This document shows, piece after piece, positions 1,163-7,259 of a stretch of 7,259 nt of DNA (positions are counted from its first letter, which is position 1; the number at the start of each line of letters is the position of its first letter). The notes under the pieces are model-generated. The model made no database searches and was not told the origin of the DNA. It saw only the letters and a program-made list of their open reading frames with translations. The stretch lies in the IMG/VR virus record IMGVR_UViG_2684622543_000002; one strand, 5' to 3'. The DNA comes from a virus. Lineage: Duplodnaviria; Heunggongvirae; Uroviricota; Caudoviricetes. The translations under genes were made by a program, and so were the position numbers.

Positions 1163-1927
1163 ATGGCAAAACCGGACTGGGAGGCCATCGAATCGGCATA
1201 CCGGGCCGGAGTCCTTAGCCTCCGTGATATAGGCGAGAAATACGGCGTTACAGAAGGGGCTATCAGGAAGAGGGCCAAAAAGCTTGGTTGGGCACGCAGT
1301 GGCGGTACGCAGGTTTGCAAAAATGGTACGCAAAAAAGGAAAGTGCGTACCAGCAGAAAGCCTGCCATTACTGGCCTTACACAAAAAAGTACGCAACTAA
1401 AAACAGAATCTACACCGGATACGAAACCGATACGCGGAATGCGTACCGATCCCCCGACTAACCCATTCCAACCCGGTAACCAGCAGGCATTAAAACACGG
1501 TGGTTATGCCCGTCGCCTTCTGCTCAAAGATGAGGTGATAGAGGACGCTAAAGCGTTGACGCTCGAGGACGAATTATTTCGCCTTCGTGCTAACAACCTT
1601 GTCGCTGCAGAGAATATTGGTCGGTGGTTGGTGTCGCTGGAAGATGCTAATGGGGACCAGGAAAGGAAGATGCTGATTGAAAATATCAGCGCCGCCGAGA
1701 AAGCAATGATGCGCAATACAGTTCGTATTGAGTCCATCGTTGGCACGCTTGCGACGGTAGGAAAAATATTTGCTGATACAGCCTACCGCAAGGCCGCCAC
1801 TGATAAGGTGTCTCTGGAGGCTGATCGTCTTCGCCGTGATGCAGGTATTGATGATGGCAATGGAGAGCGTGACCTCAATGACTTCTACTCTGACATCCAA
1901 ACCGACGCTGAATCCGGCTTTACGTAG
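1163..1927 (+). CDS. Terminase small subunit (N-terminal HTH DNA-binding domain)
   Basis: ATG at 1163 with AGGAAG (1150-1155) 7 nt upstream. N-terminus has a helix-turn-helix-like segment (LSLRDIGEKYGVTEGAIRKRAKKLGW), then a basic, probably disordered linker and a C-terminal domain. Sits immediately upstream of, and overlapping, the large terminase gene. Stop TAG at 1925-1927. Confidence 0.75.
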   Translation: MAKPDWEAIESAYRAGVLSLRDIGEKYGVTEGAIRKRAKKLGWARSGGTQVCKNGTQKRKVRTSRKPAITGLTQKSTQLKTESTPDTKPIRGMRTDPPTNPFQPGNQQALKHGGYARRLLLKDEVIEDAKALTLEDELFRLRANNLVAAENIGRWLVSLEDANGDQERKMLIENISAAEKAMMRNTVRIESIVGTLATVGKIFADTAYRKAATDKVSLEADRLRRDAGIDDGNGERDLNDFYSDIQTDAESGFT

Positions 1928-3281
1928 TTTCTGGACTATGCGGGCACGTAACAAAGTGCTTTATGGTGGTCGGTCATCGTCAAAATCATGGGATGCCGCT
2001 GGCATTGCCATATTTCTGTCGAATAAATACACCCTGCGTTTTTGTTGTGCCCGTCAGATCCAGAATAAAATCGAAGAGTCGGTGTATACCCTGCTCAAAA
2101 TTCAGATAGACAGGTTTGGTCTGCGGCACCGTTTCCGTATTCTGAACAACAAAATCATTAACCGGGTTACTGGCTCGGAATTTGTTTTTTATGGATTATG
2201 GCGCAACATCGAAGAAATTAAGTCACTGGAGGGGATCGATGTGTTGTGGCTGGAAGAAGCCCACGCACTGACGGAATACCAGTGGAAAATTCTGGAGCCA
2301 ACGATCCGTAAAGAGGGTTCGGAATGCTGGTTCATATTCAACCCCGGACTTGTTACTGATTTCGTCTGGCGCAACTTCGTTGTTGATCCGCCCGAAGGCA
2401 CTCTCATCCGCAAAATTAACTATGACGAAAATCCGTTTCTGTCTGACACCATGCTTAAGGTTATCGACGCGGCGCGACGCCGTGATCCGGATGGTTTTAA
2501 ACATGTGTATGAGGGCGTTCCGGAGTCTGATGATGATGCGGCAATCATCAAACTGTCTTGGATAGAAGCCGCAGTGGATGCGCACAAAACGTTAAATTTC
2601 GAACCCAGTGGAAGAAAGCGTATTGGCTTTGACGTGGCTGACAGTGGTACAGATAAGTGCGCTAACGTTTACCGTCACGGATCCGTTGTTTTCTGGGCCG
2701 ACGAATGGAAGGCCAAAGAAGATGAATTACTGAAGAGCTGCCAGCGTACTTATCAGGCGGCGCTGGAGCGTGAAGCAGATATTGTTTACGACTCTATCGG
2801 TGTTGGTGCGTCTGCCGGTGCTAAATTCTCTGAAATTAACGCTGACCGGAAGAGCGAGAACGCATACGCGCGACGTGTGAATTACCAGAGGTTTAACGCC
2901 GGTGCTGGTGTGCATGAGCCAGATGACGAGTACAACGGCATCCCCAACAAAGACTTTTTCGCAAATCTTAAGGCTCAGGCATGGTGGCTGGTGGCTGACC
3001 GTTTCAGAAATACGTTTAACGCCATTAACAACGGAGAACAGTATCCTGTGGATGAGCTGATCAGCATAGATTCTCGTTGTCCGTTGCTTGAAAAGCTGAA
3101 ACTGGAACTGACAACACCTCATCGTGATTTCGACCGTAACGGACGTGTGATGGTCGAAAGTAAAAAAGACCTCGCAAAACGCGAGATACCGTCACCAAAC
3201 GTTGCTGATGCATTCATTATGGCCTTCGCGCCAATCGATACATCGCTGGATATCTGGGAACAGCTGGGGAGACAGGCCTGA
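1878..3281 (+). CDS. Terminase large subunit, PBSX/Terminase_3-like (ATPase + nuclease)
   Basis: Long ORF with N-terminal Walker A (LYGGRSSSKSWD), a Walker B-like segment (IDVLWLEEAHAL) and an acidic C-terminal nuclease region (IGFDVADSG...). The ORF is open from 1770, but ATG at 1878 has GGAGAG (1861-1866) 11 nt upstream and gives a typical length of N-terminal lead before the Walker A; ATG 1860 and 1938 are alternatives. Stop TGA at 3279-3281 overlaps the portal ATG. Confidence 0.9.
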   Translation: MTSTLTSKPTLNPALRSFWTMRARNKVLYGGRSSSKSWDAAGIAIFLSNKYTLRFCCARQIQNKIEESVYTLLKIQIDRFGLRHRFRILNNKIINRVTGSEFVFYGLWRNIEEIKSLEGIDVLWLEEAHALTEYQWKILEPTIRKEGSECWFIFNPGLVTDFVWRNFVVDPPEGTLIRKINYDENPFLSDTMLKVIDAARRRDPDGFKHVYEGVPESDDDAAIIKLSWIEAAVDAHKTLNFEPSGRKRIGFDVADSGTDKCANVYRHGSVVFWADEWKAKEDELLKSCQRTYQAALEREADIVYDSIGVGASAGAKFSEINADRKSENAYARRVNYQRFNAGAGVHEPDDEYNGIPNKDFFANLKAQAWWLVADRFRNTFNAINNGEQYPVDELISIDSRCPLLEKLKLELTTPHRDFDRNGRVMVESKKDLAKREIPSPNVADAFIMAFAPIDTSLDIWEQLGRQA

Positions 3282-4786
3282 TGGCACGAAACAAACAAGC
3301 CCTGCGGCGAACTGTGCAGGCCACAGCTGATGGTTATGAGAATTTTATTGCCCGCGTAGGGATGCAGACACCTAACCAGCACTCAGCATCCACCTACCGG
3401 GCTAATTTCACCAGTCGTAACCGCATGCTGGTGGAATGGTCCTATCGTTCATCCTAGATCATCGGCGAAGCAGTCGATGCTATCCCGGATGATATGACCC
3501 GCAAAGGCATTCGCATCACTTCGGAAATTGATGCANNNNNNNNNNNNNNNNNNNNNNNNNNNNNNNNNNNNNNNNNNNNNNNNNNNNNNNNNNNNNNNNN
3601 NNNNNNNNNNNNNNNNNNNNNNNNNNNNNNNNNNNNNNNNNNNNNNNNNNNNNNNNNNNNNNNNNNNNNNNNNNNNNNNNNNNNNNNNNNNNNNNNNNNN
3701 NNNNNNNNNNNNNNNNNNNNNNNNNNNNNNNNNNNNNNNNNNNNNNNNNNNNNNNNNNNNNNNNNNNNNNNNNNNNNNNNNNNNNNNNNNNNNNNNNNNN
3801 NNNNNNNNNNNNNNNNNNNNNNNNNNNNNNNNNNGTTTTACGATGTGGTGACCACAGCAACGGGAATTCCTGCCTGGCGCATTCATCACAGTCGCCTGAT
3901 TCGCTTTGATGGCGTCACGTTGCCATTTCAGCAGAAGATGACCGAGAACGAATGGGGAATGTCGGTTGTAGAGCGTATCTGGGATCGTCTTACCGCGTTC
4001 GACAGCGCTACTGTCGGCGCGGCGCAGCTGGTCTACAAGGCGCATTTGCGTACCTACAGCGTGGAGAAGCTACGCGAGCTTATCGCACTTGGTGGTCCTG
4101 CGTATGAAGCGTTGCTGAAGAATATCGACCTGATTCGACAGTTCCAGAGTAATGAAGGCATGACGCTCATGGACTCGCGGGATAAGTTTGAAACCCATCA
4201 GTACAGCTTCAGTGGTCTGGATGACATCCTTTCGCAGTTTGTAGAACAGATTAGTGGCGCTGTTGGTATCCCACTGGTGCGGTTGTTCGGACAGTCCCCG
4301 AAAGGATTTTCTACCGGTGATGCAGACCTTGCCAACTATTACGATCGCATCAGTTCGTTGCAGGAGAGGCGTTTACGTCTTCCGGTGCGGCGGATACTGG
4401 ACATCATGCATCGTTCGGAACTTGGCAAGCCGCTGCCGGACGATTTCACGTTTGAGTTTAACCCGCTCTGGCAAATGTCTGATGTCGATCGCTCAACGGT
4501 GGCGTTAAACACCACCAACGCAATCAGTACGGCGCTGGGTGATGGTCTGATGACACTGAAAGCCGCTATGACTGATTTGCGAGAAAATTCTGACGTAACC
4601 GGCATCGGGGCATCCATTACCGACGAGGACATCGAGAATGCCGAAGATGAAGCGCCGCCCGGCATCGGCGAACCTGATGACGAACCGCAGGAGCCGTCAG
4701 GCGGAAATCCGGTATCGAACCAGCCTACGCAGGATAGCGAGGGCGGTCGGAGACATCGTAAATGGTCGCTACGATGGTTCAAATGA
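3281..4786 (+). pseudogene. Portal protein, disrupted: in-frame TAG at 3455-3457 plus an internal assembly gap
   Basis: ATG at 3281 overlaps the terminase stop (TGATG), a typical coupled start. The frame reads MARNKQALRR...NRMLVEWSYRSS-TAG-IIGEAVDAIPDDMTRKGIRITSEIDA, then the N-run, then continues in the same frame (FYDVVTTATGIPAWRIHHSRLIRFDGV... acidic tail) to TGA at 4784-4786. The longest intact ORF is only 3494-4786. Position in the operon (after TerL, before the MuF-like gene) and an acidic C-terminus fit a portal. Confidence 0.7.
3536..3834. other. Assembly gap / masked sequence (299 N) inside the portal gene
   Basis: Uninterrupted run of n from 3536 to 3834. The X-containing ORFs in the track across this region are artefacts. 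Confidence 0.99.
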
Positions 4787-5420
4787 CAGTATCACGGAAA
4801 TTATTGCGGCGCTGGAGCGTTACAGTGAAATCATCACCCCCTGGGCGACAAAGGTCGCGGAAAACTTTACTGCGGACCTAACCCGGCAGAACGAGAAAGT
4901 TTGGCGGCAACACAGCAAGAACATCAGTCGCGAGCTCCGCAATCTTGTGGAAAGCGCTCCTGTGGGCCAGGTGATGCAATCCATCATCGCCGAACAGGTC
5001 AAGTACATCAAATCTCTGCCTCTCGAGGCCGCAGACAGGGTGTACGACATCCAGAACAAAGCGATAGAGGCTGTTGTCACCGGTGGTCGGGCGGAGCAGT
5101 TTGCTAAAGAGATTGCATCTACCGGCGATGTTGCTAAGTCTAGGGCCGATCTGATTGCCCGAACGGAACTGGGAAGAGCAACGGGCGCGCTGGATATGGC
5201 CCGAGCGATAGCTATTGGCTCGGATGGTTATATTTGGCGTACAGCCGATGATGGCGATGTCCGAGATTCCCACGATCACATGAAAGGTAAATTCGTCCGC
5301 TGGGATTCACCTCCAACTTTGGACGGCATGACCGGCCACGCGGGCGAGCTGCCAAACTGCCGCTGCTATAAAGAGATCGTGTTTGTTCGCGTTCCATTCG
5401 CAATGAAAAGGGCAGCATAA
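4638..5420 (+). CDS. Phage head morphogenesis protein, MuF / SPP1 gp7-like minor head protein
   Basis: 260 aa. C-terminal region carries the characteristic MuF-family motif (IARTELGRA...YIWRTADDGDVRDSHDHMKGKFVRWD...ELPNCRCY). ATG at 4638 with GAGGA (4625-4629) upstream; overlaps the portal 3' end by 149 nt in another frame. Stop TAA at 5418-5420. Confidence 0.85.
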   Translation: MPKMKRRPASANLMTNRRSRQAEIRYRTSLRRIARAVGDIVNGRYDGSNDSITEIIAALERYSEIITPWATKVAENFTADLTRQNEKVWRQHSKNISRELRNLVESAPVGQVMQSIIAEQVKYIKSLPLEAADRVYDIQNKAIEAVVTGGRAEQFAKEIASTGDVAKSRADLIARTELGRATGALDMARAIAIGSDGYIWRTADDGDVRDSHDHMKGKFVRWDSPPTLDGMTGHAGELPNCRCYKEIVFVRVPFAMKRAA

Positions 5421-5423
5421 CCC

Positions 5424-6644
5424 ATGAAATACTTTTTTGAGACCAGGCTCGGGGAAACCCGATACCGCCTGGCTGACGGCTCGTTGCTGTGCAAAGACGT
5501 GCCGATAGGACGAACAGGTAAGCAGCTCTATGGTGCTGATGACCTGCCAAAACTGAAACCCGATAAGTTCGGTGAAATAGTCGTCACGCGTTCTCCTGAG
5601 CAGGTATTCCATCCGGCCACGCTTGCCTCATTCGAAGGGATGAGCATCACGATCCTGCATCCTGAAGATGAAAACGGGAATGTGCGGCTGGTAAATCCCG
5701 AGAACTGGAAAGAGCTTGCTGTCGGGCACCTCCAGAATGTCCGGCGCGGGACGGGTGAGCAGTCTGATTTGATGCTGGCTGACCTTATCGTCAAAGACGA
5801 AAGCGCCATTCAGCTTATCGAAGATGGCCTGCGCGAAGTGTCGTGCGGCTATGACGCGGAGTACGAGCAGACCGAGCCAGGTAAAGCCGAGCAGGTCGAT
5901 ATTACCGGAAACCATGTGGCTCTTGTCCCTAAAGGCAGAGCCGGAAATCGTTGTGCAATTGGAGACAGAGACACAATGGCAAATCAAAAGAAAAACTGGT
6001 GGAACCGCATGCGTGCGGCCATCAAGACAGGAGATGCCGACACCATGAACGAACTGGTGGAGTCGGCTCCCGCATCGGTTACAGGAGATGAGGGGGATTT
6101 GCCGCAGGGCGTTAATCTCAACATCAACCTGTCCCCGCAGCAACCACTACCGGACAAAGCACCAGAGATGGGCGGAGATCCAACCGGCGACAGTGATGAT
6201 GACCTCAAAACATTACTGAAAGCCCTGCTGGCTAAGCTGGAAAGAAATGCCACGGGCGATAACGATAATAAGCCTGACGATAATCCGACCGGTGACGGCG
6301 AGGACGATGAAGAGGAAACCACGATTACTGGTGACTCAGCCTGGCGTGCCGAAGTTATCGTTCCGGGTATCGATCTGAGCCGTAAGATGAAACCGACCGC
6401 GTTCAAACGCGAGGTTCTGGCTTCTGCTGACAAAACGCTGGTTCGCCAGATAGTCGGTGATGCGGATATCCGCAAATTACCGAAACAATCGGTCGACATG
6501 GCGTTTAATGCCGTGTCTGAGGTTGCCAAAGGGCGAAACACCCGCGCCACCACCGGCGATGCACAGCGCCTAAACATGGGCATGACCAGTATCGCTTCCC
6601 TGAACAAACAAAACGCTGAATTCTGGGCAAACCGTAAAGGGTAA
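5424..6644 (+). CDS. Putative head scaffolding / prohead assembly protein (DUF2213-like), with acidic low-complexity tract
   Basis: 406 aa ORF starting 3 nt after the MuF stop. Globular N-terminal region (ITILHPEDENGN...GNHVALVPKGRAG) followed by a D/E-rich tract with repeated TGD motifs, which is typical of scaffold proteins. Position between the minor head protein and downstream structural genes supports the call. Family assignment is from memory. Confidence 0.55.
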   Translation: MKYFFETRLGETRYRLADGSLLCKDVPIGRTGKQLYGADDLPKLKPDKFGEIVVTRSPEQVFHPATLASFEGMSITILHPEDENGNVRLVNPENWKELAVGHLQNVRRGTGEQSDLMLADLIVKDESAIQLIEDGLREVSCGYDAEYEQTEPGKAEQVDITGNHVALVPKGRAGNRCAIGDRDTMANQKKNWWNRMRAAIKTGDADTMNELVESAPASVTGDEGDLPQGVNLNINLSPQQPLPDKAPEMGGDPTGDSDDDLKTLLKALLAKLERNATGDNDNKPDDNPTGDGEDDEEETTITGDSAWRAEVIVPGIDLSRKMKPTAFKREVLASADKTLVRQIVGDADIRKLPKQSVDMAFNAVSEVAKGRNTRATTGDAQRLNMGMTSIASLNKQNAEFWANRKG

Positions 6645-6647
6645 AAA

Positions 6648-7154
6648 ATGAATAATGTATTTCTGTACCGGATGCCTGTTGGCATTGCCGGGGCTGTCTC
6701 TCGCCCGCAGGACTTAACCGTCGAACCGGTGGTCCTTAAATCCGATAACGCCTTCGCTGCCTATGGCCTGGCTGGTAAATACGATGATGACGGTTTTTTC
6801 GTGCCGCTGGCAGATGGTGATACCGCAGACAAGGTGAAGGGGATCTACGTGCGCCCTTATCCGACCACGTCGCAGCCGGACATGGTTCGCCAGGTGGGAA
6901 CAGGCAAGAACTTCCCGGGCGACGCCATGAAGCGTGGCTACGTGACCGTTAATCTCGGTTCTGATTTTGATGCCAGCACTATCAAAAAAGGCGATCCGGT
7001 ATACGTTGTCGTCTCCACTGATGAATCCATCAAAGTGCCGCTGGGTGGATTCATGTCCACGTCAGTCAGTGGCAAAAACGTGGTGCTGACCAACGCTGAA
7101 TTCACAGGTGCCGGTGATGCTGACGGCAATGCAGAAATTTCCTGGAAGATTTAA
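6648..7154 (+). CDS. Small phage structural protein (possible head decoration/cement protein, DUF2190-like)
   Basis: 168 aa ORF beginning 3 nt after the upstream stop, with AAGGG upstream. Gly/Val/Thr-rich and probably beta-rich. Too small for a major capsid protein; in this kind of head module it sits between the scaffold-like gene and the major capsid gene. Function inferred from position only. Confidence 0.45.
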   Translation: MNNVFLYRMPVGIAGAVSRPQDLTVEPVVLKSDNAFAAYGLAGKYDDDGFFVPLADGDTADKVKGIYVRPYPTTSQPDMVRQVGTGKNFPGDAMKRGYVTVNLGSDFDASTIKKGDPVYVVVSTDESIKVPLGGFMSTSVSGKNVVLTNAEFTGAGDADGNAEISWKI

Positions 7155-7169
7155 GGAACAGACGAATGA

Positions 7170-7192
7170 GGTGATGCTGCCAACTTACTGAT
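7170..7192 (+). repeat. IS1 left terminal inverted repeat (IRL)
   Basis: GGTGATGCTGCCAACTTACTGAT at the element boundary; the partner repeat is outside the window. Confidence 0.85.
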
Positions 7193-7224
7193 TTAGTGTA
7201 TGATGGTGTTTTTGAGGTGCTCCA

Positions 7225-7259
7225 GTGGCTTCTGTTTCTATCAGCTGTCCCTCCTGTTC
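7225..7259 (+). CDS. insA: IS1 InsA (transposition regulator), 5' end only; GTG start
   Basis: GTG at 7225 followed by GCT TCT GTT TCT ATC AGC TGT CCC TCC TGT TC = (M)ASVSISCPSC, the known InsA N-terminus. Truncated by the window edge. Confidence 0.8.
   Translation, partial: MASVSISCPSC

Follow-up and report, generated by a model that had tools for sequence, protein, structure and literature searches.

An IS1 copy at nucleotide 4 of a phage major capsid gene very probably marks a 19-kb deletion in a defective SEN34-like prophage

The stretch of DNA analysed here, in the following called the window, comprises 7,259 nt of a Caudoviricetes record (IMGVR_UViG_2684622543_000002) and stops 90 nt into an IS1 element, leaving its own right flank unseen. 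IS1 is joined to the first four nucleotides of a phage head gene. The original prediction, made from the window only, held that the element had split this gene, likely the major capsid gene, directly after its start codon. The question raised by the locus is whether the gene continues behind IS1 or whether something else is found there.

The head gene at the left junction

The last intact head gene before the junction is a cement or minor capsid gene (6648-7154, + strand, 168 aa). In Pfam it matched PF23982 XM1_gp53_minor_capsid (E = 4.4e-30) and PF22758 Phage_cement (E = 2.8e-21), and its counterpart in E. coli is annotated as 'structural cement protein Gp24'. Its TAA stop codon is located at 7152-7154. 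The sequence AAGGA (7153-7157, + strand), read as a Shine-Dalgarno-like element of the major capsid gene, lies 8 nt before an ATG at 7166 and is invariant in the E. coli relatives and in phage SEN34. What remains of the capsid gene is ATGA (7166-7169, + strand), the start codon plus one base, as delimited by the end of homology and by the annotated starts in relatives. Similarity to window positions 6300-7259 ends exactly at 7169 in 335 complete E. coli genomes, and the gene under the end of the match is annotated in RefSeq as DUF2184, with its start at the ATG equivalent to 7166. In NZ_CP065613, the DUF2184/PF09950 gene beginning at this position specifies a product of 313 aa, and in SEN34 a 'major head protein' gene of the same length is annotated at the same ATG. 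The 43 bases TAAGGAACAGACGAATGATTACTTTTGATCAGGCAACCGTTGA, which comprise the cement-capsid intergenic stretch and the start codon, are identical in E. coli, L005 and SEN34.

The capsid family assignment was made on the intact orthologue, the window keeping only 4 nt of the gene. This orthologue matched PF09950 (DUF2184) with E = 6.8e-88 and 294.7 bits, compared to a cut-off of 26.8, and PDB entry 8hdt_A, 'Major capsid', with E = 4.8e-19. By these matches, the gene starting at 7166 is identified as an HK97-fold major capsid gene (PF09950). The stop codon of the 168-aa gene, AAGGA, the ATG, and the beginning of IS1 at 7170 were all confirmed in the sequence as originally predicted. The assignment of the ATG to the next head gene was borne out by the homology end and the annotated starts in NZ_CP065613 and SEN34, and that of the gene to the major capsid protein by PF09950, 8hdt_A and the SEN34 annotation of the intact relatives. 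Read from the capsid ATG, the window retains a frame of two codons, ATG AGG TGA (M-R-stop; 7166-7174, + strand), which ends within the IS1 inverted repeat.

Directly after capsid nucleotide 4, at 7170, the IS1 left inverted repeat GGTGATGCTGCCAACTTACTGAT... begins. The IS1 left end (7170-7259, + strand) contains this repeat (7170-7192), a promoter-like site detected by a promoter scan (7177-7204), and the GTG start codon of insA at 7225, from which the frame reads VASVSISCPSC. The element has the orientation of the head genes, and it is the insA-proximal end that abuts capsid nucleotide 4, as had been proposed. Over these 90 bases, the identity to annotated IS1A/IS1B copies is complete (100%, E = 7e-39), with matches at about 72,700 places in E. 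coli genomes; with this identity, the match is evidently no chance resemblance.

Simple insertion of IS1 normally gives a 9-bp target duplication. If the element had entered the capsid gene in this way, 8-9 bp would be duplicated and the remaining 938 nt of the gene would be located past the IS1 right end. The 9 bp expected to be duplicated are GACGAATGA (7161-7169), and the IS1 right end should be followed by GACGAATGA and TTACTTTTGATCAGG..., the capsid ORF going on, i.e. by GACGAATGATTACTTTTG. The duplication would span the ATG, and the full ORF would be regenerated downstream, cut from its ribosome-binding site only. The left junction looks exactly like that of a fresh insertion, and the IS1 right end is not shown by the window.

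The far side of IS1 in complete genomes

An exact-protein look-up was performed with the DUF2213 protein of the window, which shows one distinguishing substitution compared with L001. Ten places in closed or near-closed genomes were obtained, and in seven of them (L003, L004, L006, L007, L009, L010, L012) IS1 is located directly after the cement gene. Four of these complete genomes (L004, L006, L007, L010) agree with the window at every position other than N (100% identity), also in 7170-7259, while in the remaining three (L003, L009, L012) one or two bases differ and the junction is the same. All seven harbor a complete IS1 of 768 bp. In the genomes identical to the window, the full 768-bp element with both ends is 99.1% identical to an annotated IS1A copy and is bounded by imperfect terminal repeats of ~23 bp (GGTGATGCTGCCAACTTACTGAT / GGTAATGACTCCAACTTATTGAT). 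The IS1 products in L003, L004, L007 and L010 match PF03811, PF12759 and PF03400, and the reference copy is annotated with a 'programmed frameshift', as applies to insA and insB' specifying the InsAB' transposase. The 8-9 bp target-site duplication was not detected in any of the seven genomes, in which IS1 is flanked by GACGAATGA on the left and AACAGGGGG on the right. The missing duplication is compatible with the identity of the element as IS1, and it shows that the present layout differs from a simple insertion.

The gene order is the same in all seven genomes: the cement gene, IS1, an ORF of 43 aa, the lactonase gene pgl, the LysR regulator gene ybhD, a second IS1, ybhJ, and ybhC, after which the integrase gene of a lambdoid prophage is found. 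Past the IS1 right end the DNA reads AACAGGGGGATTTACCATGCTTATTGGCTATGTACGCGTATCAACAAATGACCAG... (the right flank begins AACAGGGGGATTTACCATGCTTATTGGCTATGTACGCGTATCAAC...). This flank corresponds to the 5' part of a serine-recombinase (Pin-like invertase) gene, which is truncated and followed by pgl. The 43-aa invertase remnant showed a Resolvase N-terminal match below threshold, its E. coli counterpart is a partial DNA invertase in RefSeq, and its ATG lies 17 nt downstream of the IS1 right end.

L010 is CP019689, Shigella sonnei 75/02 (PMC5447701). In the same publication, region 75/02pp10 (CP019689 3,461,614-3,492,646) is listed in Table 3 as 'Intact' according to PHAST with SEN34 as homolog, and regions similar to it are reported for the other complete S. 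sonnei genomes (PMC5447701). By its gene content, 75/02pp10 is really a capsid-less and tail-less remnant lumped with chromosomal genes and part of the neighbouring lambdoid prophage.

The second IS1 (L004 15112-15879) is located about 2.6 kb downstream of the first in inverse orientation and takes the place of 2.8 kb of chromosomal DNA (ybhH, ybhI and the 5' end of ybhJ) compared with E. coli FDAARGOS_944. The two oppositely oriented copies bracket the invertase remnant, pgl and ybhD, together about 4.1 kb (L004 11747-15879). That both act as a composite transposon mobilising pgl, or that the IS1 right end alters pgl expression, appears highly improbable. Either would make the locus more than a passive scar; no observation supports either.

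The same junction is contained in four IMG/VR contigs (L015, L016, L017, L018). Over their full extent, L015 and L018 agree with the arrangement in S. sonnei; L017 consists almost entirely of IS1. In L016 (IMGVR_UViG_2671180338_000008, 1-2347), the same left junction and IS1 are followed by a different right flank, a hypothetical ORF of 96 aa and then IS3-family DNA, with matches scattered in E. coli chromosomes. This flank results either from a later IS1-IS1 rearrangement or from an assembly misjoin, and the right flank of IS1 is therefore not uniform across assemblies. Because the window ends inside IS1, the right flank of its own source genome can only be inferred; it is presumably the one found in the majority. 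L018 was considered as a more divergent carrier of the junction and rejected, all 21 mismatches being clustered in 166 bp. This patch corresponds to the 5' end of the lysozyme gene (equivalent to L004 4039-4204) and suggests recombination or gene conversion from the lysozyme gene of another prophage, with no deeper ancestry.

With these sequences at hand, the expectations for a simple insertion could be compared with the actual right flanks. Past IS1, the capsid gene is found neither in the seven complete genomes nor in L016, and none of them shows the duplication. A search for the IS1 right end followed after 0-14 nt by capsid codons 2-9 in degenerate form gave no match in GTDB representatives, IMG/VR or JGI metagenomes, and the left junction itself was detected in no complete E. 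coli genome and in none of the GTDB representative genomes. For the complete genomes identical to the window, in which IS1 is followed by the invertase remnant and pgl, a simple insertion is refuted, and for the window it deserves very little credence. Extending the locus downstream, as the original prediction had proposed, thus yielded neither the duplication nor the remainder of the capsid ORF in any of the seven complete genomes. The notion of a split capsid gene was correct with respect to the site, which is genic and lies at nucleotide 4, but the remainder of the gene is absent past IS1 in all seven.

The junction could also be produced by repeat-induced misassembly inside IS1, with something else next to the cement gene in reality. 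The window breaks off 90 nt into a repeat with many copies, as is typical for the end of a short-read contig, and it contains a run of 299 N compared to 260 bases in the identical genomes. However, the transition from unique DNA to IS1 lies within the window sequence itself and recurs in seven independently assembled closed chromosomes and in the four IMG/VR contigs, which makes an artefact scarcely credible. In 3,923 of 4,653 index blocks with the exact DUF2213 protein, the longest such contig measures 5-10 kb, suggesting that the 7.26-kb window is a typical short-read contig of this locus, bounded by repeats on both sides. Both its ends, position 1 (mid Rz, in lambdoid lysis genes) and position 7259 (IS1), are in repeated sequence, which is consistent with a whole short-read contig.

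Intact prophages and the origin of the junction

In NZ_CP065613, the sequence found on the right of IS1 is located at the distal end of a prophage with the gene order head genes, neck, sheath, tube, tape measure, baseplate, tail fibres, ipaHb, truncated invertase, and pgl. It lies between ipaHb and pgl and has the same orientation. The two IS1 flanks are collinear in this prophage, in the same orientation, and 19,075 bp apart. The region between them, absent at the IS1 junction, contains the capsid gene from nucleotide 5, the neck, sheath, tube, tape-measure, baseplate and tail-fibre genes, and the gene for an ipaH E3-ligase effector. The latter, ipaHb (L013 10761-12587; NZ_CP065613 4326760-4328586), is type III secretion effector cargo inside the distal end, and its product has NEL E3-ligase and T3SS LRR domains.

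E. coli FDAARGOS_944 and FDAARGOS_943 carry the ipaH prophage by pgl and share its chromosomal site and orientation with the window element. The identity is 99.7-99.9% up to window position 7169 and 98.4% from the invertase remnant into pgl and ybhD. In contrast to the lineage of the window, both strains keep the 19,075 bp with the capsid gene, tail genes and ipaHb, have no IS1 at either site, and retain ybhH, ybhI and an intact ybhJ. Among complete E. coli genomes, the invertase-side flank was found only in these two strains, in both cases without IS1. The intact prophage used for comparison comes from a strain labelled E. coli and not from an S. sonnei ancestor, and its right flank is only 98.4% identical; the ancestral prophage of S. 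sonnei presumably resembled it.

Since the flanks of IS1 are collinear with the intact layout, the element marks a deletion and neither a simple insertion nor an inversion. It appears very likely from this comparison that about 19 kb were lost and that the capsid gene is absent, being neither split nor interrupted. The alternative mentioned along with the original prediction, an insertion into an intergenic region, was wrong, the site being genic and IS1 marking a 19-kb deletion.

One could also imagine that recombination between IS1 copies inverted the segment from capsid to tail or moved it elsewhere in the chromosome, where its genes would persist. IS-mediated inversions are reported to be frequent in Shigella genomes (PMC8072062), and L016 shows this IS1 joined to another right flank. 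In all seven genomes, however, both IS1 flanks are collinear and in the orientation of the intact prophage. Such an arrangement is given by a deletion and not by an inversion, and a rearrangement with persisting genes is therefore very unlikely.

Deletions caused by IS1 classically arise by adjacent deletion or by recombination between two direct copies. In the deletion favoured here, the span lost would be the 19 kb between capsid nucleotide 4 and a point 17 nt before the invertase remnant. It could have been removed if a single IS1 copy entered at one of the two ends and intramolecular transposition then started from one terminus of the element ('adjacent deletion'). Alternatively, two IS1 copies may have been inserted in the same orientation and homologous recombination between them may have followed. 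Both routes leave the same product and are indistinguishable here. Among the sequences searched for intermediates, an IS1 copy placed before the invertase remnant and still joined to the ipaH side gave no match in IMG/VR or metagenomes. No intermediate that would favour one route or order of events was found in the searched genomes, IMG/VR or metagenomes. As in classical adjacent or IS-IS deletions, a single element bridges two once-distant points without target duplication. The mechanism is alike, and only the endpoints, capsid nucleotide 4 and 17 nt before the invertase remnant, are specific. The junction is an ordinary scar of IS-driven prophage decay in Shigella and represents an already known kind of event; IS1 expansion, IS-mediated gene disruption and deletions, and genome reduction have been described for this genus (PMC7373316).

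Decay of the remnant

The window begins with a fragment of the Rz lysis gene (56-367, Pfam), followed by a gene for a DedA-family (VTT domain) membrane protein (456-968, - strand), recognised from an annotated E. coli relative. The latter is placed on the opposite strand between Rz and the small terminase gene, is moron-like, and is conserved in all prophage relatives. The head module consists of a probable small terminase gene (1163-1927, from an annotated E. coli relative), the large terminase gene (1770-3281, Pfam), a portal pseudogene (3281-4786, + strand), genes for a Mu F-like head morphogenesis protein (4638-5420, Pfam) and a DUF2213 protein (5424-6644, Pfam), and the cement gene. Over 100% of window positions 3835-7169, the head module is 82.1% identical to SEN34 with the same gene order; for the Escherichia phage vB_EcoM-606R2 group the identity is 94%. 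Small and large terminase, DUF1073 portal, Mu F-like, DUF2213, cement and major head genes are shared with these phages. In contrast to them, the window element has no capsid, neck and tail genes and two stops in its portal gene. In addition, its control region, early and late, has been replaced or disrupted by IS elements, and Rz and the terminase genes are separated by a DedA-family gene. From these comparisons, the window in all likelihood covers part of the head module of a defective SEN34-like (Brunovirus-type) myovirus prophage of the kind present in Shigella sonnei, and its right edge is in all likelihood an IS1-capped deletion junction.

L001 and L005 have intact portal genes of 488 aa. 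Compared with these, the portal gene of the window carries an amber codon at W59 (TGG to TAG, 3455-3457) and a second one at Q126, which is located in the masked stretch and was read from the genomes identical to the window. In the 15 loci compared, both stops are present in every locus with the IS1 junction and neither in the junction-free loci. This perfect co-occurrence is uninformative on the order of events. The 299-N run inside the portal gene (3536-3834) is a mask or a scaffold gap of wrong size, and the 260 real bases of the otherwise identical genomes are ordinary portal coding sequence.

In the closed genomes, the DNA preceding the window (L004 1-4020) retains late-leader sequence over about 540 nt, followed by an IS110-family element. 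An IS3-family element truncates the holin gene close to its 3' end, and further IS3-family DNA is found upstream. A gene for the Q antiterminator was not called within 10 kb upstream in the closed genomes. The original prediction had also placed the IS1 end beside late-operon read-through transcription. The insA-proximal end indeed abuts the head genes, but read-through from the late promoter into IS1 is unlikely, because two IS elements separate what is left of the late leader from the lysis and head genes and Q was not found within 10 kb upstream.

From its gene content, the locus is not a complete, inducible SEN34-like genome, the capsid-to-fibre genes being absent, the portal gene containing stops, the holin gene being cut, and Q being missing within 10 kb. 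The remnant is accordingly predicted to be unable to make particles. That it cannot form capsids, as had been stated, is true but understated, since neck, tail and fibre genes are also gone, the portal gene has nonsense codons, and IS elements are present in the late leader and holin region.

The importance of these findings beyond annotation hygiene is small. A contig ending inside an IS element is no proof of simple gene disruption, for its far side may be distant sequence. Remnants of this kind can receive an 'intact' score from automated prophage callers, as exemplified by PHAST on 75/02pp10 (PMC5447701). For Shigella, the locus provides one more documented case of IS1 erosion of a prophage, in which an ipaH effector gene would have been removed along with the structural genes.
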